This document shows, piece by piece, positions 1,801 through 11,631 of a DNA stretch of 64,000 bases. The stretch's first letter is position 1, and each line of letters starts with the position of its first letter. The stretch is taken from NCBI GenBank assembly GCA_035221665.1, contig CM069145.1, positions 52,700,001 to 52,764,000 on the forward strand, read 5' to 3'. A program made the translations under genes and the position numbers. The DNA is from Okamejei kenojei (lineage: Eukaryota). The notes under the pieces were generated by a model. That model searched no databases. It saw only the letters and a list, made by a program, of their open reading frames with translations, and was not told where the DNA came from.

Positions 1801-2670
1801 TTTAAGTCTGTTGTTACTTAAGTTCCCAAGTGCTGGTTTTGATTCCTGTAAATAAACTAAGACCCATGGAAGAATGGTTTGCAGGAGGTCAATATCTTAT
1901 TTTGTCTTTTTTTCCTTCTTTCTAGATTTGTGATAGATTATAGAAAATATATTCCATGGAAGGTGTTCATACTTATGCAGGCATTAGCTTAACTTTGCTG
2001 TTAACAATTGCTCATTTACTATTCATCCTGGGGCAACATCTGGGGAATTTAAAGTCAGGCAATTCAACAAGCCTACAATGATATGCAGGTTCCATTAAAG
2101 TTAGACATGAAACTAATGGGTGGTTGTAATATTTAATCTATTTCACCAATATTCATTAGTTAGTTTAGTTTATTGTCATGTGTACAGTGAAAAGTTTTTT
2201 TGTTGTGTGCAGCCAGTGGAAAGACTATACAAGTTTATAATCGAGCTGTCCACAGCATGCAGATAAAGGGAATGACAATTAGTGCAAGCTAGTGAAGTAT
2301 AACTGGCATCTTTTAATGGTCTTTGTCTCTGTTTCCTCTGTGACCCCTAATCTGCCAGTCTCGTCTGGTCGACTTTGAAATTGCATGACAAATCATTCAG
2401 TTTAATGTGGTCATACAGCAAGGAAGCAAGCCCTTCGACCCAACTCGTCCAAAGAGAATTAAAGCTATTAAATAACAATAAAACTACCAGTTTGATGCAA
2501 AAATCCAACAGTAATATTGTTCAGGGAAGGAAGTTGATTATCCTTACCCAGTCTGGCCTATATGTGACTCAAGACCATTAATGTCTTACAGTTATACAGC
2601 ATGAAAACAGGCCCTTCAACACAACTCTCCATGCCGACCAAGAGCCGCCATTTAAACAAAGGCTTAAAAG

Positions 2671-2716
2671 GCTTCTCGGCCTTTTGGCTAAGATCAAGTG
2701 TAGTATCTGTTCTTAT
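2671..2716 (+). pseudogene. RNU2: U2 snRNA 5' fragment (nt 4-49), followed by a second copy of U2 nt 37-52 at 2729-2744
   Basis: GCTTCTCGGCCTTTTGGCTAAGATCAAGTGTAGTATCTGTTCTTAT matches vertebrate U2 as I recall it, including the branch-point recognition sequence GTAGTA (2700-2705). The rest of U2 (Sm site, 3' stems) is absent. Confidence 0.93.
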
Positions 2717-2878
2717 TGTGAAAGAGACTATCTGTTCTTATCAGAACAGTTCTGGCGGTTCCTTGGGGACAAGGGCCGTGGATTGCGGAGCGAAATCGTT
2801 GAGGAGTCGGTCGGCTGCAGGCTTAGAGGTGGATCCATGCTGGTTGGGAAACCAACCTAACACCTTATTTCAGCCACA

Positions 2879-4518
2879 ATGTCAGCAGGAGCAGGAGCAG
2901 GAGCAGGAGTGCAGGGTATTCGGAATACCCTGCGAATAAGCGTCAAGGACCTCAGCAAGGGGAACCCCTTCTCACGAGACCTGTTCGTGAAGAAGGTCTT
3001 GCTAGAGGCCTGCAAATTCGAGGCCAAGGACATCTACTGCCTCCAGGATTTTCCGGGTAACGGATATTTTGATGTTACCTTCAAGTATCCAACGGGATGG
3101 CAGAAGGTGATGGAAGTCTTCCGGGAGAGGGGAAATGAAGCTCCGCTGTCGCTGCTGAAAGTGCAGCCGCTCTTCACCCTCCCCACCCAGAAGGAAAGGT
3201 TCATTACGGTTCACATGTTTAACCCACATGTGCCCGTAGTGGATGTCCTCACCTTCCTTGCTCGTTACGTTGAGGGAACAGGAAACTGTGTGGACGTCAA
3301 GGACATGCACGGGATTTGGACCAGCAAGCGGCAAGTCAAGGTAAAGCTGAGGGTGGACAAGGATGGAGAAATCGTCCACCCCCCCTCGGTTTTCGCGATT
3401 GGAGGAAACCAAGGGTACTTGAGCTATGTAGGGCAACCCAGGCTGTGCAGGAAATGCAACAAGCCTGGGCATGTGATGGCCCAATGCACTGCAGTTGTCT
3501 GCAAAAACTGCAAGATGGAGGGCCATGAGACAAAGGACTGTCAGGCCAGCAAGAACTGCAACCTGTGCGGGGAGGCAGGTCACCTTTACAGGGCTTGCCC
3601 TAAAAGAGCCTGCACCTACGCACAGGCAACAAGAGGAGCTGCTGCCAGCACCCCAAAGGGGGGTGAGGCACCCCCCACCACTGCCAAGACCCCAGCAGAA
3701 AGAGGGAACACGGACGAGGACAGCCCGACCACCTCGAGGCCCCAAGTGCCAGAAGGAGACGCCCAGCATCCTGCCCAGGAGGGAGAGTCGATGGAGGAGG
3801 GGGAACAGCAGGAGAAATGGACAATGGTGAAGTATAAGAAGAGGGGTCAGCCCAAAGAGCCAAGGCCGGAAAAGAGTGGTAAGTCCAAAAGAAAATCACA
3901 AAAAAGGTGTCTTTCTCTTACAGAAGGCAGCAACCTCTCCTCCTCGTCGGAGGATGAGGCGACCGGGAAGTCCCAACGAGGGAAGCAGAGGAAGAAAACG
4001 GGGGAGGAAAAGGAGACCGAGAGCAGAGAAGTGGCCGAGGGGCTCCAGCCCCAGGACATCGGGAGCAGCGCAGTGGTTGAGGGGCTCCAGGCCCCGGAGA
4101 CAGGAATCATCACAACGGCAAGTGGACCCCAGCTCCAGGGGACTGGGAGCAGTGCAACGGCCGATGGGCCCCAGCTCCGGGCGACCGGGAGCATTGCAGT
4201 GGCCGATGGGCCACAGCTCCGGGCGACCGGGAGCATTGCAGCGGCCCATGGGCCCCAGCTCCGGGCGACCGGGAGCAGCGCAGAGGCCATTGGGCCCCAG
4301 CTCCGGGCGACCGGGAGCAGCGCAGAGGCCATTGGGCCCAGCTACAGAAGACAAAGGAAGCGGCATGCCCAAAAGGGGGTGGAACGAGAAGGCCCCCCGC
4401 AACGACAACTTTGGTTACGCCACCTGATACTCACCTCACCGTTGGATTCCTGAGCCCAGGAAAGCTGAGGCAATTCACCGAAACGGTGGGGATGATGGGA
4501 CATGGAAATGGCCAGTGA
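2879..4518 (+). CDS. Tx1 ORF1p, ZCCHC3-like nucleic-acid-binding protein with three CCHC zinc knuckles; probable 1-nt deletion near 4338
   Basis: ATG in GCCACAATG context; knuckles CRKCNKPGHVMAQC, CKNCKMEGHETKDC, CNLCGEAGHLYRAC. The track ORF stops at 4453. Restoring one C in GGGCCC(C)AG keeps the GPQL repeat phase and reads to TGA 4516-4518, just before the ORF2 ATG. Confidence 0.85.
4124..4345 (+). repeat. 39-bp coding minisatellite in ORF1 (13-aa unit GPQLRATGS...), about 5.5 copies
   Basis: Repeated GGGCCCCAGCTCCGGGCGACCGGGAGCA... seen directly. Confidence 0.9.
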
Positions 4519-4529
4519 CTCTAAAGACA

Positions 4530-7500
4530 ATGGAGCTCAAACTGGCATCTTTAAAACGTGCGCAGTATAAAGAGCACTGCGCGATGTGTTAATGCCTTAC
4601 AGTACCTGGCCAAGGTCAAGGCAGATGTGACTTTTCTTCAGGAGTGCGGGCTGCCACACCTCCGCTGCTATCGGAGGTGGTCGCGATGGTGGCCCCACGG
4701 ACTGTCTGTGTGGTCGGGGGGAAATGACTGTCGTGCTTCCGGCCTGGGGATTTTGCTACGGGGAGGGAACTTCACCATCACTGAGGTCAAGGAAGTGGTT
4801 GGAGGGCGTCTCCTCGTGGTGGATGTTATGTACCGTGGCTCTCCGCTCCGGCTGATAAATGTGTATGCCTCACCCACGCAGAGCGAGCGGCTGGCCGTTC
4901 TCCAGCAGCTCCCAGTGCTGCTGGCCACGTCCCGGCAGCTCGTTCTGGCCGGTGACTTCAACTGCATCATTGATGCGGCTGGACGATCCGGCAGTGCCGA
5001 CAGCAGACTGGACAGCACGTCCAAGTTTCTGATGGAGATGGTAAAAGACGCAAAGCTGCGTGACGCCTTCAGCGACCCTGCAGGCGGGTCCCAGCCGCAG
5101 TTCACTTGGTCGAGATCGGACGGTTTAGCCCGATCCCGGATAGACTTCGTCTTCACGACGAAGGCCGTCACGGTGAGACACACTGACCTCACGCCAGTGT
5201 TCTTCTCCGACCACTGCCTACTTCAGGCTTCCTGTCACCTACGGGAGGACCGGAAGGCAGGCAGAGGGACGTGGAAGTTAAACACGAAACTGTTGACCCC
5301 AGAGAATGTCGAGGAGCTAAAGAGGGACTACGCATGTTGGAGAACGGTGAAGCCCCTCTTTGACTCCCCCACACTCTGGTGGGAAGCAACCAAGGAGAAC
5401 ATTAAGAGGTTCTTCATAATTAAAGGGGTTCAGAGAGCAAGACAGAGTCAGAGGGAATTGTGCCAACTCCAGACAGATTTGCAGCAACTGCTCCTTCTGC
5501 AGTCGAGCGGGGTGGATGTGAGGGAGGAACTTAGAGAGTTGAAGGACCGGCAAGCTCAGCTCTTCACCTCTGAATCCTCCAAGATCATCTTCCGATCTAG
5601 GGTCCGCCATGTGGAGCAGGATGAGACGTGCTCACGTTTCTTCTTCCATAAGGTTCACAGGGGGAGCTCTGTGATGAACAGCCTTAGGGAGGAGGACGGC
5701 ACGGTAGCATCCTCACACACAGACATGCTGAGGATCTGCAAATCCTTTTACACAGATTTGTATGACCAAAAGACCACAGACAGTACCTCCTCCCAGAACT
5801 TCCTGTCCTCAATCACGGAGGTCTTGGAGGACAGCAAGCGGGAGAGTCTGGACCAACCACTGACCCTAGAGGAGCTGACTGGCTCCATCCGTTCCTTTGA
5901 CTCGAATAAAACTCCCGGAAGCGATGGCTTACCGGCTGAGTTGTATTTGGCTCTGTGGGACTGGATGGGCCCGGACCTGCTAGAAGTGTACAACAACATG
6001 CTTCTGGCTGGTAGCATGTCAGACTCCATGAGGAAGGGCAACATCACCCTAATCTACAAGCAGAAGGGGGAGATGAAGGACATAAAGAATTGGAGACCCA
6101 TAACACTCTTGAATGTGGACTACAAGATCCTGTCCAAGGCCATCGCCAACCGGGTCAAGTCTGCTCTGGGACAGGTGATCCACCCGGACCAAACCTGTGC
6201 TGTACCTGGCAGGAAAATCACAGACAGCCTAGCGCTGCTGAGAGATACCATCGCCTACGTGCAGGACAGACGGGTGGATGCCTGCCTAGTCAGCTTGGAC
6301 CAGGAGAAGGCCTTCGACAGGATTTCGCACACGTACATGAGGGACGTGCTCTCCAAAATGGGTTTTGGGGAGGGAATCAGAAATTGGATCAAACTGCTCT
6401 ACACCAACATCCGTAGTGCAGTCCAAATCAATGGGTGGGAATCAGACAGTTTCCCTGTAAGGTCTGGAGTTAGGCAGGGTTGCCCTCTCTCTCCTGTCTT
6501 GTTTGTCTGCTGTATTGAACCTTTTGCTGAATCCATCAGGAAGGATGCTGGCATAAGAGGAGTGACATTGCCAGGCAGTGGGGGCATTCAAGTAAAGACC
6601 TCCCTGTACATGGACGATGTCGCTGTCTTCTGCTCGGATCCAGGGTCGGTTCGCAGACTGATTAGTATCTGCGACCAGTTTGAGTCGGCCACGGGAGCCA
6701 GGGTGAACCGCAAGAAGAGCGAGGCCATGCTCTTTGGCAACTGGCCCGACAGATCTTCCGTCCCCTTCACCATCAAGCCTGACTTCTTGAAGGTGCTGGG
6801 GATCTGGTTCGGGGGGGCTGAGGCATGTAACAAAAATTGGCTGGAGCGGATAGCCAGGGTGGGGAGGAAGCTGGAGCTGTGGAGGCAACGCTCCCTCTCC
6901 ATAACGGGAAATAATTTGGTCATCAGGTGTGAGGTGCTCTCGGGGCTGCTGTACTTGGCACAAGTGTGGCCTGTCCCTCCCTCATACGCCACAGGGATCA
7001 CCCGGGCCATCTTCCAATTCATCTGGGGGTCGAGGATGGACCGGGTGCGACGGGCTACAATGTACAAGTCGGCAGACAACGGGGGTAAAAGCGTGCCCAA
7101 CGTCGCCCTCATTCTGATGGCCACCTTCGTGTGTGGCTGCATCAGACGGATTGTAGAGCCAAGGCACGTGGGCACCAAGTGTCACTACCTGCTGAGGTTC
7201 TACCTGTCCCCGGTGTTGAGAAGGATGGGCCTGGCGCAGGTGCCACGCAATGTGCCAGTCAGCTGGACATTGCCGCCCCATCTGTCGTCGGTGGAAGGGT
7301 TCTTCCGGACCAACACCTTTGACCACATGTCCATCGGGCAGTGGTCAGCACAGAATGTCCTGCAGGCACTGCAGGGAAAGGACTCTATGGACCCGGTGGC
7401 GTGGTTCCCTGAGCAGACTGCCCAGCTTGTCTGGCAAAATGCCTCATCGCCAGAACTCACCAACAAGCACCAAGACCTGGCTTGGCTGGCGGTGAGGGGA

Positions 7501-7938
7501 GCCCTCCCAGTCAGATCCTTCCTGCACCGTCGGAACCTCACTGCCAGCGCACGCTGCCCTCGGGACGGCTGCTATGGCGAGGAGACGGTTGCCCACCTCT
7601 TCACAGAGTGTGGGTTTGCTAAAGGAGTCTGGAGAAAAATGCAAGGGTCCCTGGTACGCTTTATCCCGAACAGCTCCGTCACAGAGGACTCTGTGATTTA
7701 CGGACTGTTCCCAGGGACACATTCAGAGACTGACATCGAGTGCTGCTGGAGGGTCATCAACTCGGTAAAAGACGCCCTTTGGTCTGCCCGAGCATTGTTC
7801 ACCACCCAGCAGAGCGAGATGTCCATCAGGGAATGTTGCCGACTGGCCCGCTGCAGACTGCAGGAGTACGTGCTGAGGGATGCACTGAAGCTCGGTGCAG
7901 CCAACGCCAAGGCTCGGTGGGGGAGGGCCACAGTCTAA
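4530..7938 (+). CDS. Tx1 ORF2p: APE endonuclease, reverse transcriptase and C-terminal zf-RVT; extra A near 4553-4556 separates the ATG from the 1126-aa frame
   Basis: EN motifs FLQE, GDFN, RIDF, SDH; RT motifs WRPITLLNVDYK, LDQEKAFD, GVRQGCPLSP, YMDD; C-terminal CPRDGC...HLFTEC. ATG 4530 reads MELKLASL and removing one A gives the canonical ...SLNVRSIK start. Confidence 0.93.
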
Positions 7939-8869
7939 GGCCCTTCCGCTGCTGGACATGGGGGGTACAGTATTGTGGAGACGCCCCTCAATATAAGGGA
8001 AGGTATCCCACGCCATTGTGGCACGAGTGGGGGACTGATTTGTGGAAATTTGGGGGAAAGAAATGTCTAAACTGTATTGATCTATTGTACAGCCTCCGAA
8101 AATGTCGGATGGATTTTCCGCAAGGTTAATGTATTGTATATATTTATCATTCGAATAAAGTATATTTTGAAATTTAAAAAAAAAAAAAAAAATTTAAACA
8201 AAATCCATTTGCCTGCATTTGGCTCATAATCCTCTAAACGATTCCTATCCATGTACCTATCCAAGTGCCTCAACTCCCTCCTCTAGTCTCTTACCAGATA
8301 CCCACCATTCTTTGGGTGAAAAACGTTCCCCTTGGGTTCCTATTAAATCTTTTCCCCCCTCACCTTAAACCTCCGTACTCTGGTTCTTGATTCCACTACT
8401 CTGGGTAAAAGACTGTGCATCTACGCTATCTATTCCCCTCTCATCCTCCTGCTCTCTAAGGAATAAAGTCATAGTCTGCCCAATTTCTCCCTATAGCACA
8501 GGCCTTAAAGTATTGACAACATGCTTATAAATCTTCTCTGTCACTCTTTCCAGTATAAACAATATCTTTCCTATAGCAGAGTGATGAAAACTGTGCTCAA
8601 TACTCCAGATGAGGCCTCACCAACATCTTGTACCACACAATATTTTTGGATAATAGTTACTTTCCCTTTTTAGTTCAGGTTAGCAGATGTACAGCATTCG
8701 CCAACTTGTTCAATAGTTAGTTTAGTTTATTGCCGGTAACACTGATACCAGGAAGGGATACAGTAGGTTTTCCTGTTTCTGCAGGTCACTGCGATGATTG
8801 TGGAATTTTTTTATTTCCAAAAAATTGATTTTATTAAAATTTGCAAATGTACAAATCATTCACCTGTTA

Positions 8870-9622: not shown

Positions 9623-10493
9623 GTGTTTTTAAAGAGATTATTTTCCAGCCCCTAGTGGTCGTAAAAAGCATTGCCAAGACCTGGCTCATTAAATAATGGC
9701 TCAGATTTTCCAGTTGTAATTATGCTGAAAGTGCCAGCGTTCACTGTCATCTCACTGTGAAACTAACACTTAGCAAGTTTTGGAGTACAATCGTGCAAAT
9801 ATTGAAATCTAGAAATTGCTGTCAGTGACTTCCTTTCCCTCCACAGACCATTTTATTTTTACACGTTGTCCAACACAACCAAGAAAAAAACAATAATTTA
9901 ACAAAAAACTATTCAAGCTAATTGCCAATTTTGCTGCCTGTAAAATATGCTGTACTTTTTTTTGTAATAAGTGTGAGCCAGCTTTACATGATGAACTCAT
10001 ACATAATTACTCCTTTGTAAATTCTCTCGCCCCAAAAATAAACGTTGTGGTTTGTACTTCTCTGACAAATAATTTCACTCTGACATAATTTCTCTTTTTA
10101 ACGCAAATTTCAATACAATTAAATCGTGCATTGAGTGCTTTTGTTAAGTTTGATATTTCAGTTACTTCCATCTCATGTATATTCCAATTATTTGTACATG
10201 GTTTGTAAAATATTTACACTATTAACTTAAACCTGTAAATATATGGAACTGCAGTTCTGGTTTGCAATAAAGAAACCCAAACTGCTGGAGTAACTCAACA
10301 GATCAGGCAGCATCTCTGCAGAACTTGGAGAAGGGTCCCGACCTGAAACATTTCCTATTAATGTTCTCCAGAGATGCTGCATGACCTGCTGAGTTACACC
10401 AGCACTTTTATGCCTTTTAAAAAATATAAATGTGCCTGTTTTTCTTCCTGTACATTTTGTGTCATAGGTTGCTGACTCAATTGGGGGACATCG

Positions 10494-11631
10494 CTGTTGC
10501 TTAATGCCTGGGATCCTGTAGAAATGACTCAGAACGGTTCCTGACCTTGAAAAAGAGGAACTACATATTATGGAGTTCACCAGCTCTTTATGAAAATTAT
10601 TTTTCGAAATCAGCAGATTATACTGATTGCAAAATCTAGACTGTAGACACCTCTATCTCACGAGCTGCAGCAGATGGCTGTTTGGGAAATTCAAACGTGA
10701 GTGTGAACACACATTAAAGTACACCTTGAAATGTTCAAATCATTTCAACGTACATATGACAACATACTTCGACAACCAATGAGTGTGTTGAAATACATGT
10801 ATTTATTTTGTCACCAATTTGAGATGCGAATATGTTTGATTTGGTCATCTGTGACAGCGCCCCCTACCCCTGGCTGACTGATCAGGATGGGGGGGGGGGC
10901 TCTCATAGGTGACCAAAGCAAACATGTTCGCACCAAAGATCCTTTGGCAAGCAAGATAGACCACTCCTTCTAAATGCAATGGGCTGATGCGTAGTACGCA
11001 ACGGAGCAGAACGTGAGCCTTTTTTTCATCCATTTCCGTAACCCACCCGACTCGCAGTGTAATCAGCATTGCGGGGGAACAGTTTGTGTTAATAAATTAT
11101 AATTCTGAAAATGAGAAGATTTTTCCCAAATAACTTTTATTTTTACGTGGATGTTTCCGTAACCGGCTTCCGCACTAGTATCCTATGGGATCTTTGGTGC
11201 GGAGACGGAAGCTGGTTACGGAAATGGGGCCGGAAATGACCCATGAATCTGCCCATGACCGTACTACTTGTTTTTCGTCGAGTGATCTATCTTGCTTGCT
11301 ATAGGATCTGTGGTTCGCACCTCAAATTGGAGACAAAAAAAACCCCAACATCTATTTCAACACACTCATAATTGGTTGTTGAAGTACGTTGTCGTATGTA
11401 CTTTGAAATGATTTGAAGTGTGTTCACACACGTTTGAAATTCCCAAACAACAATCTGCTGCAGCTTGTGAGATAGAGGTGCCTACAGTCTAGATTTTGCA
11501 GTCAGTATACTCTGCTGATTTCAAAAAATAATGTTCATAAAGAACTGGTGAACTCCGTATTATGGAGTTCCTCTTTTTCAAGGTCAGGAGTTCTGAGTCA
11601 TTTCTACAGGATCCCAGGCATTAAGCAACAT
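10494..11631. mobile_element. Foldback/palindromic MITE-like element, ~370-bp inverted arms around a ~30-nt loop (~10865-10895)
   Basis: TGTTGCTTAATGCCTGGGATCCTGTAGAAATGACTCAGAAC... on the left is the reverse complement of ...GTTCTGAGTCATTTCTACAGGATCCCAGGCATTAAGCAACA. The right arm is interrupted by 10934-11312. Confidence 0.85.
10934..11312. mobile_element. Non-autonomous DNA transposon (hAT- or P-type MITE)
   Basis: ~33-bp TIRs (CAAAGATCCTTTGGCAAGCAAGATAGACCACTC / GAGTGATCTATCTTGCTTGCTATAGGATCTGTG) and 8-bp TSD GTTCGCAC at 10926-10933 and 11313-11320. Confidence 0.85.

Follow-up and report, generated by a model that had tools for sequence, protein, structure and literature searches.

A Keno-like Tx1-type LINE of the skate Okamejei kenojei inserts into U1 to U5 snRNA genes and behind PSE-like motifs, probably guided by the snRNA promoter complex

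Introduction

Keno is a Tx1-clade LINE with an AP endonuclease that is described as specific for U2 snRNA genes (PMC4640811, PMC4494074, PMC6136364), and target choice in Tx1-clade LINEs has been described as mainly a matter of endonuclease specificity (PMC4494074). Crocodilian Tx1-Mar elements carry snRNA-derived heads, i.e. a U2 head in Tx1-11_Crp and U1 heads in Tx1-2_Crp, Tx1-2B_Crp and Tx1-4_AMi (PMC4494074). For Tx1-Mar and SINEU-1/2, recurrent U1/U2 additions with 3' ends varying by up to 22 nt were reported, together with hotspots in another transposon at sites without recognisable sequence similarity; Tx1-Mar prefers Mariner-N4_AMi, a crocodilian repeat, with one hotspot near 240 (antisense) and another near 830 (sense), and the authors attribute the heads to template switching and leave transcription open (PMC4494074). 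The snRNA genes are also targeted by the DNA transposons Dada-U1 and Dada-U6 and by Utopia (PMC8869645, PMC4640811); PMC4640811 lists only Keno, Utopia, Dada-U1 and Dada-U6 as elements of this kind. Another mode of targeting is reported from Dictyostelium, where TRE5-A uses TFIIIB/TFIIIC to insert ~47 bp in front of Pol III genes (PMC5391098, PMC3159450).

Here we follow up a U2-headed retrotransposon found in a skate. Our main reading, to which we assign a probability of roughly two in three (0.68), is that a Keno-like Tx1-type LINE inserts sense-wise at nt 32–42 of U1–U5 and elsewhere preferentially 94–105 bp behind PSE-like motifs, with SNAPc or the Pol II snRNA initiation complex as its likely tether, and that copies residing in U2 genes are read from the U2 promoter while snRNA heads stack up.

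Results and discussion

The element in the window

The window, i.e. the whole stretch analysed here, comprises 64,000 nt of Okamejei kenojei (contig CM069145.1, forward strand positions 52,700,001 to 52,764,000, from the assembly GCA_035221665.1, which is rich in indel errors). Positions below are those of the window:

2547..2564, + strand, PSE-like motif in the target flank, 104 bp upstream of the nick
2650..2660, + strand, left TSD, 11 bp, sequence ATTTAAACAAA
2661..2670, + strand, 10 extra bases ahead of U2, with an 8-base match to the U1 variants L142/L143
2671..2716, + strand, U2 head, nt 4–49, the source U2 gene's 5' portion, ending where the source's target duplication ends
2717..2728, + strand, 12-nt spacer common to the family, where the element proper begins (178 exact head-spacer junctions)
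2729..2744, + strand, inner U2 nt 37–52 block, fixed in the family, hairpin with 2744–2749
2745..2878, + strand, remaining 5' UTR
2879..4453, + strand, ORF1, 524 aa, two RBD_ZCCHC3 domains and CCHC zinc knuckles
4530..7938, + strand, ORF2, AP endonuclease, RT with YMDD and zf-RVT; open frame 4555–7938
7939..8175, + strand, 3' UTR with polyadenylation signal; its last 21 bases occur in 1,852 exact copies
8176..8191, + strand, poly(A) tail
8192..8202, + strand, right TSD, 11 bp, ATTTAAACAAA

An earlier note on this DNA had described an 11-bp TSD, and both copies of ATTTAAACAAA are indeed exact and cannot be extended. All blocks of the order it gave (TSD, U2 nt 4–49, 12 nt, U2 nt 37–52) are present, with the correction that ten bases (2661–2670) separate the TSD from U2 nt 4. 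The copies L030 and L116 have the same junction; the ten bases might possibly be the remnant of a U1 head (U1 nt ~33–40) plus a short slippage duplication. The U2 head matches Rfam U2 with 65.5 bits (E 2e-11) and joins the element as it does in gene-resident copies, and the two U2-derived stretches, 2671–2716 and 2729–2744, are identical to the U2 gene of the same genome. The inner block likely represents an older 5' junction. The flanks are not U2, as had been stated before; they are repetitive (22-base match to another flank) and presumably the halves of an old CR1 tail. With 5.5 bits the PSE-like motif has the top score among 964 positions on both strands of the rebuilt empty site; taken alone it is a modest match, and the window site fits the PSE-distance rule described below.

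ORF1 lacks the base or bases near 4340 that 40 of 60 copies have. The ATG of ORF2 at 4530 is out of frame because of one extra base near 4556, which 39/60 copies do not have and which is a mutation or an assembly error.

A young family of Tx1-type LINEs

The earlier note had proposed a search for further copies, and this establishes the U2-headed element as a family with 178 U2-headed copies and 1,852 exact 3' ends in GCA_035221665.1. A one-off template-switch chimera is ruled out by the 178 exact head-spacer junctions. Judged from sequence, the family classifies as a young, Keno-like Tx1-type LINE, Keno being compared by its published description. It shows the traits of Tx1/L1-type elements, namely RNA-binding and CCHC domains in ORF1, an AP endonuclease, an RT and a C-terminal zinc finger in ORF2, a poly(A) tail and a TSD, and its endonuclease is AP-type (Pfam Exo_endo_phos, GDFN and SDH motifs), not restriction-like. 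A protein called 'transposon TX1 149 kDa' matches the RT region at 45%, and Takifugu BAD04856.1, whose record carries no family name, is likewise 45% identical. At 5.5 kb and with two ORFs, the element is not a SINEU, i.e. a short non-coding retroposon.

Like Keno, the family is an APE-RT LINE with poly(A) that inserts sense-wise in U2 genes, partly at the published site with the 3' flank TCTGTTCTT. Unlike Keno, it is not restricted to U2, as it also targets U1, U3, U4 and U5 and Penelope repeats, and most of its copies are dispersed under the PSE-distance rule (1,852 ends vs 26 U2 junctions). With Tx1-Mar and SINEU it shares a probable Keno relationship within Tx1, repeatedly added U1/U2-derived heads, the extra heads being stacked as in SINEU, and a hotspot in another transposon, here a GIY-YIG (Penelope-like) repeat; gene-resident copies, U3/U4/U5 targets and heads and the PSE-distance rule set it apart. 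A U2-headed Tx1 element is not in itself novel, Tx1-11_Crp having been published already (PMC4494074).

A tree of element bodies (71 of 79 rows kept; the 8 dropped had <2,500 usable bases) is star-like, poorly resolved and largely uninformative. We also observed U6 3'-end chimeras of the classical kind with truncated copies (L170, L069, L418, L419 and L423).

Insertion into snRNA genes

Gene ends of U2 and U1 were chosen without regard to the element, 30 each. For U2, 25/30 are joined to element poly(A) at nt 33–38, 4/30 are intact and the remaining one runs at nt 28 into an element with a 3' deletion, with no junctions elsewhere; the commonest position is nt 35/36, and 7 of the 25 junctions lie at the published Keno site (37 nt in), before TCTGTTCTT. 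For U1, 16/30 are joined at nt 32–42, 11/30 are intact and 3/30 are other. Two of eight strong U3 matches are split at nt 35–37 (L278 keeps the promoter upstream), two U4 genes are split at nt 34–37 with three intact genes beside them, and an element fragment is joined to U5 at nt 37. The insertions into snRNA genes run in sense direction, and, as for Keno, tandem arrays occur within one gene (L245/L246). The split-gene counts include segmental duplicates (L306/317/321/323, L297/320, L295/296, L276/L293), and many split U1, U4 and U5 ends have no directly adjacent 5' half and promoter, reflecting large duplications, deletions or transductions.

The target sites in U1, U2, U3, U4 and U5 are unrelated in sequence and share the same promoter distance. 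This bears on the classical Keno model adopted in the earlier note, in which a U2-sequence-specific endonuclease occasionally inserts at random off-target sites and the head seeds new targets. That U2 is hit most heavily (25/30), with 7 junctions at the published site, and that the unique site of L122 resembles the U2 site would suit this model, but the use of four other genes at the same offset, the approximately 1,850 ends outside U2, dispersed nicks with no consensus beyond A/G, and heads that are not re-targeted make it very improbable.

The PSE-distance rule at dispersed sites

A PSE matrix was built from 18 promoters, with the PSE near −62; it also recovers the PSE of true U6 (−67) and 7SK (−68) genes. 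At 44 dispersed sites outside Penelope repeats, the best score 94–105 bp upstream averages +1.29, while 1,892 control windows average −3.45 (z 8.1, Mann-Whitney p 2e-9), and this enrichment is seen on the same strand only. For 200 column-shuffled matrices the maximum was 1.67 (4.83 observed). De-duplicating the sites (n=35) leaves z at 8.1. Each of the two subsets shows the signal (z 4.2 and 6.9), as do the 24 sites without TSD (z 3.4); 12 sites of U6 retrocopies do not show it (z −0.7). The motifs are often weak, with many low-scoring sites and at least 8 bits in just 4/44. In the Penelope-repeat hotspot we found 167 junctions, with a PSE-like motif 95–104 bp upstream in 8/10; two controls, the opposite strand and a position about 45 bp upstream, gave 0 junctions each. 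A second repeat hotspot, picked after two cases had been seen, is a weak case, with 11 vs 2 junctions (5/11 in one cluster). Dispersed nicks have no consensus except an A before and a G after, which is partly imposed by poly(A) boundary calling.

The dispersed insertions preferentially keep one distance from, and one orientation towards, a promoter element, independently of sequence and also at orphan motifs. They had been taken for random 'off-target' retrotransposition; instead, they obey the same rule as the snRNA genes. Because five unrelated genes and PSE look-alikes are used at one distance, the element likely homes on a promoter-bound complex and not on U2 sequence. This resembles TRE5-A, a non-LTR element that is reported to keep a constant spacing from a promoter-bound complex and to use isolated promoter-like motifs where there is no gene as well. 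The skate family differs in that its insertions fall within Pol II snRNA genes, with the PSE ~97 bp upstream, and in that it likely borrows their promoter.

The PSE-dependent Pol III genes, a small sample of four true U6 genes and one 7SK gene, are all intact, and two patterns searched returned no element junctions in U6/7SK; the single U12 match found is full length. Since these PSE-bearing Pol III genes are unhit, the PSE alone may not suffice. Their being unhit would also suit an opening of DNA that depends on Pol II, and the same positional data could be explained without any contact to SNAPc if ORF1p or a domain of ORF2p read PSE-like DNA directly, or if the element protein cut where Pol II, pausing beyond any SNAPc-bound site, has opened the DNA. 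Position +35 is near promoter-proximal Pol II. We nevertheless regard this explanation as unlikely: repeats with weak, degenerate motifs are also hit, with distance and strand unchanged, and we know of no precedent for a 97-bp reach by an element protein alone.

snRNA heads and their source copies

The earlier suggestion of a source copy within a U2 gene is borne out by the full-length copies L061–L063, which lie inside U2 genes with >400 bp of promoter. Dispersed headed copies start at U2 nt 1–32, and none of 60 headed copies has a recognisable U2 promoter. These observations fit the view that gene-resident U2 copies probably act as sources read from the U2 promoter. A G preceding U2 nt 1 was considered as cap-derived and rejected, as it belongs to the TSD in L081 and L093. 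The idea that the head spreads new target sites is not supported: 0/60 headed copies were re-hit at head nt 33–40, and 23/26 poly(A)-to-U2 junctions are on contigs or clusters holding U2 genes (the other three, one on C2 and two on C15, lie outside these clusters).

Extra U1 or U3 heads are borne by 25/60 headed copies, and all 25 start at nt 1–17 and end at nt 37–60, just beyond the nick window. The apparent 3' transductions in L328 (from a U1 gene) and L387 (from a U3 gene), together with the nested U1 duplication inside one TSD in L122, suggest gene-resident sources for them. A possible alternative, which we rate as clearly the weaker of the two, keeps the positional targeting and has the extra U1/U3/U4/U5 heads, perhaps also the U2 head, arise from RT template jumps onto snRNAs at microhomologies, as for SINEU. 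Most head-U2 junctions overlap by 2–8 nt, classical U6 3'-end chimeras occur here, and template switching is the explanation preferred in PMC4494074. Also consistent with it, a search for full-length sources that combine the U1 promoter with both a U1 and a U2 head gave 0 exact matches, and U1-/U3-headed copies are scattered over the star-like tree, only L078 and L118 forming a pair. Template jumps would, on the other hand, have to account for 25/25 head ends at nt 37–60 of 160–220-nt RNAs, none before the nick window, for head donors that are exactly the targeted genes, and for L122, L328 and L387. Moreover, U2-resident copies cluster solely among the youngest copies, so sources seem short-lived.

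Proposed mechanism

In the reading we prefer, SNAPc or the Pol II snRNA initiation complex would serve as the tether for the element ribonucleoprotein, which would nick at a fixed distance (~97 bp behind the PSE) with little sequence need. A copy inside a real U2 gene would be transcribed from the external U2 promoter; U2 sequence from nt 1 to about 47–49 would then head its RNA and be copied into every full-length daughter, the window copy included. Should such a U2-headed RNA land in a U1, U3, U4 or U5 gene, the following round would place the first 37–60 nt of that gene ahead of the existing head, and successive rounds would give stacked heads.

Going further, we lean slightly towards regarding the family as the first LINE to be directed to its targets by SNAPc or the Pol II snRNA initiation complex, one that lands a fixed step behind any occupied PSE, takes the promoter over and stacks snRNA heads by rounds; Keno's U2 specificity, the Tx1-Mar hotspots and the heads and transcription of SINEU might then come down to one PSE-tethering mechanism. 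The Dada elements and Utopia use other enzymes and one gene type per family, and Dada is argued to recognise primary sequence.

Implications

Our search of the open literature turned up neither PSE-distance targeting nor a single LINE family that occupies U1 to U5 genes. A PSE-distance rule over five genes alters the mainly endonuclease-based view of Tx1 target choice, and it offers a testable answer to the question left open in PMC4494074, i.e. how snRNA-headed retroposons are transcribed and heads repeatedly added. Promoter-complex tethering, known for Pol III from TRE5-A and also from Ty1 and Ty3, would with this family reach the Pol II snRNA machinery of a vertebrate. The finding may suggest a route to promoter-guided gene insertion. 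For the skate, it means a heavy load on spliceosomal genes, with most U2 and half of the U1 gene ends examined being split, and, if the tethering reading is true, the family, with its roughly 2,000 insertions, would provide a map of cryptic SNAPc sites in the germline.

The U2-headed element and its family

The window copy has the anatomy claimed in the earlier note, with TSD, U2 blocks, spacer, ORF1, ORF2 and poly(A) all present; 10 additional bases lie ahead of its U2 block.

Parts of the window copy at its two ends
2650-2660 and 8192-8202: TSD, 11 bp
2671-2716: U2 head, nt 4-49
Between U2 nt 4-49 and the inner U2 block: 12-nt spacer
2729-2744: inner U2 block, nt 37-52

The start of its ORF2 is out of frame through one additional base near 4556, a base missing in 39/60 copies. 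The relatives of ORF1 come from sharks and rays, so the host is probably a cartilaginous fish. Elsewhere in the window, inverted repeat arrays at 1020-1550 and 10220-10930, with weak miRNA-like Rfam matches far under threshold, are probably SINE or LINE tail repeats.

The element is a young family. In the 2.76 Gb genome assembly, all 40 candidates scored (from 571 candidates) match 2700-2900 at 99-100%, and the U2 head is present at 30/30 loci; the searches returned 178 exact head-element junctions, 183 inner U2 blocks (with a U2 head in 28/30 of those examined) and 1,852 exact element 3' ends. Copies diverge from the majority base by ~0.6-4% (window copy 0.72%), and the nearest neighbour of the window copy in the tree, with weak support (0.889), is L061, a copy resident in a U2 gene.

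Copies in U2 genes, the probable sources

Contig C37 holds a cluster of U2 genes. The source copy had been proposed to sit within a U2 gene, and we indeed found full-length copies (L061, L062 and L063) behind a U2 promoter, in the order U2 promoter (>400 bp), U2 nt 1-47/49, element, poly(A), U2 from nt 35/36; loci L245/L246 form a tandem array downstream of a partial promoter. The two common junction types of dispersed copies (31/60 and 22/60) are both found in gene-resident copies, and the dispersed copies, in which no recognisable promoter was seen, start within U2 nt 1-32. Because of the gene-resident structures, the matching junction types and these promoterless starts, the head corresponds to the source gene's 5' half together with the target duplication of that gene. 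On this sequence evidence, the dispersed copies were likely made by read-out from the U2 promoter.

The further proposal that the head spreads new target sites did not hold: 0/60 headed copies are hit at head nt 33-40, and 23/26 poly(A)-to-U2 junctions lie on C37, C21 or C593, contigs holding U2 genes, with the other 3 elsewhere. A second element stands immediately upstream of the head in 3/60 headed copies.

Insertion position across snRNA genes

What the family targets is defined by position and not by U2 sequence. Gene 3' ends were gathered independently of the element (38 U2, 46 U1) and the first 30 of each inspected. In these split-gene counts, several entries of which are segmental duplicates, 25 U2 ends were joined to element poly(A), at nt 33 (1), 35/36 (14), 37 (3) and 38 (7), while 4 were intact and 1 was joined at nt 28 to a 3'-deleted element; for U1, 16 were joined within nt 32-42 (15 that had been flagged, and locus L337), 11 were intact and 3 other. 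U3 is split at nt 35-37 in 2/8 strong hits, and locus L278 reads PSE (the promoter element common to snRNA genes), U3 1-37, truncated element, poly(A), U3 37-end. Two U4 genes are split at nt 34-37, next to three intact genes, and U5 nt 37 is joined to an element fragment without poly(A) at two similar loci. In many U1, U4 and U5 cases an intact gene lies in front or the adjacent 5' half is missing. By inspection, the nick sequences across the U1-U5 genes are unrelated.

At a U1 locus on contig C30 (L067, L068, L281) there is a tandem array. Its unit, repeated at least four times, is an intact U1 gene followed after an 84-nt spacer by a U2-headed element, poly(A) and U1 from nt 37-42. At L296 and L060, a truncated element has its 5' end on U1 upstream promoter sequence and its 3' end on U2 nt 35-36, which is suggestive of a rearrangement, linked to insertion, that involved U1 and U2 loci. 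U1 genes at L145/L334 and L275 (contig C21) are broken by other short insertions, not from this family, one of which has nt 24-40 duplicated. A U4 5' fragment within an antisense LINE-like stretch (L254-L258, L260, L262) is amplified on several small contigs.

The positional rule at dispersed sites

A motif search on 18 promoters placed the PSE at about -62, and the matrix also detects a PSE in front of true U6 genes and 7SK genes, none of them in its training set. Since the PSE-to-nick distance in genes is 93-103 bp, a test window of 94-105 bp was used. The nick was set by the TSD in 34/81 full-length loci and 25/70 loci picked by 3' end; 5 sites (tandem, nested, microsatellite or duplicate) were removed, and 10 Penelope and 44 other sites kept. 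At these 44 sites the mean best window score is +1.29; the 1,892 control windows give -3.45 (z 8.1, with p 2e-9 by Mann-Whitney test). The PSE-like enrichment is confined to the sense strand and peaks at 94-101; column-shuffled matrices reach at most 1.67, compared with 4.83 observed. It persists when duplicates are removed (35 sites, z 8.1) and when each subset is taken alone (z 4.2, 6.9), and 24 TSD-less sites chosen by hand show it too (z 3.4); U6 retrocopies (12 with TSD among 21 examined) are without PSE-like signal (z -0.7). The top motif-free 4-mer is TCAC (uncorrected p 0.004). Dispersed sites follow the same positional rule as the snRNA genes, with motifs that are mostly weak, since only 4/44 sites reach 8 bits; the window copy's own insertion site has the best of 964 PSE scores at 104 bp.

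A GIY-YIG-coding, Penelope-like repeat (at least 4,087 copies) is a hotspot, with 167 exact junctions within ~15 bp, none in the opposite orientation and none about 45 bp upstream. Of the 10 Penelope sites, 8 have a PSE-like motif 95-104 bp upstream; these are one sequence and therefore count as one test. A second repeat gives a weak signal (11 vs 2 junctions).

Among PSE-bearing U6 and 7SK genes, no insertion interrupts 4 true U6 genes or the only 7SK gene, two search patterns gave no U6 junctions, and one U12 match is full length. The unhit U6 and 7SK, few genes in number, hint at a Pol II-type complex. An older Tx1 fragment, 74% identical (L406:2022-2255 and L408:2016-2249), follows true U6 genes at a distance of ~400 bp.

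Stacked heads

Among 60 headed copies (the first 60 of 178), extra front pieces derive from U1 in 20 and from U3 in 5; they start at nt 1-17, end at nt 37-60 and lie inside the TSD wherever one was called. U4 heads occur at L069, L214 and L248, the last with U4, U1 and U2 stacked, and a U5 head at L231. Template jumps, which the junction microhomologies would permit, could have stacked these heads, a possibility that we regard with some doubt. We lean slightly towards gene-resident sources, which are favoured by three loci: L122, where one unique TSD encloses U1 1-51, a complete element with poly(A), then U1 39-56 and a truncated element, and L328 and L387, where U1 40-168 and U3 42-76, respectively, follow the poly(A) and are read as 3' transductions. 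Against gene-resident sources count the dispersal of headed copies over the tree and the fact that no U1-promoter source was found for the U1-headed copies.

The loci L131-L149 comprise at least six variants of the U1 sequence, which have distinct promoters and are set apart by stem-loop I; all but one were seen as heads or targets. At L232, L246, L290, L243, L244 and L235 the head junction is of another kind, in which the spacer is longer and U2 37-47 blocks recur. The one such copy whose divergence was measured, L232, is more diverged, and these junctions would fit an inner U2 block that arose by successive junction capture. The U6 3' end is fused to 5'-truncated element copies at L170, L069, L418, L419 and L423, the classical U6/LINE chimera type, here in a cartilaginous fish. 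Close behind a U3 gene, L290:1985-2500 is a short U2-headed derivative with an internal deletion (5' UTR, ORF1 start, 3' end and poly(A) are kept), possibly a SINEU-like offshoot.

Proposed mechanism and relation to known elements

Insertion positions and PSE-like enrichment were observed; a tether and promoter use are our inference. Most likely, the element ribonucleoprotein would dock on SNAPc or on the Pol II snRNA initiation complex; its AP endonuclease would nick the DNA ~97 bp past the start of the PSE, and reverse transcription would then be target-primed. The strong PSEs of real genes would be hit very often, giving promoter-driven sources, and dispersed copies would gather at weak PSE look-alikes. 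The closest mechanism to such tethering is that of TRE5-A, as described in PMC5391098.

U2-headed Tx1 elements are already known: the crocodilian Tx1-Mar families, Keno-related, are U1- and U2-headed, and recurrent head addition is attributed to template switching, two unrelated hotspots are placed in Mariner-N4_AMi and transcription is left open (PMC4494074). The snRNA-targeting list in PMC4640811 is limited to Keno, Utopia, Dada-U1 and Dada-U6; the Keno insertion site is given in PMC6136364, and PMC8869645 argues for sequence recognition by Dada. In the literature searched, we found no report of PSE-distance targeting. What is new here, as a putative form of promoter-complex-tethered retrotransposition, is PSE-anchored targeting, at five snRNA-type genes and at orphan motifs.
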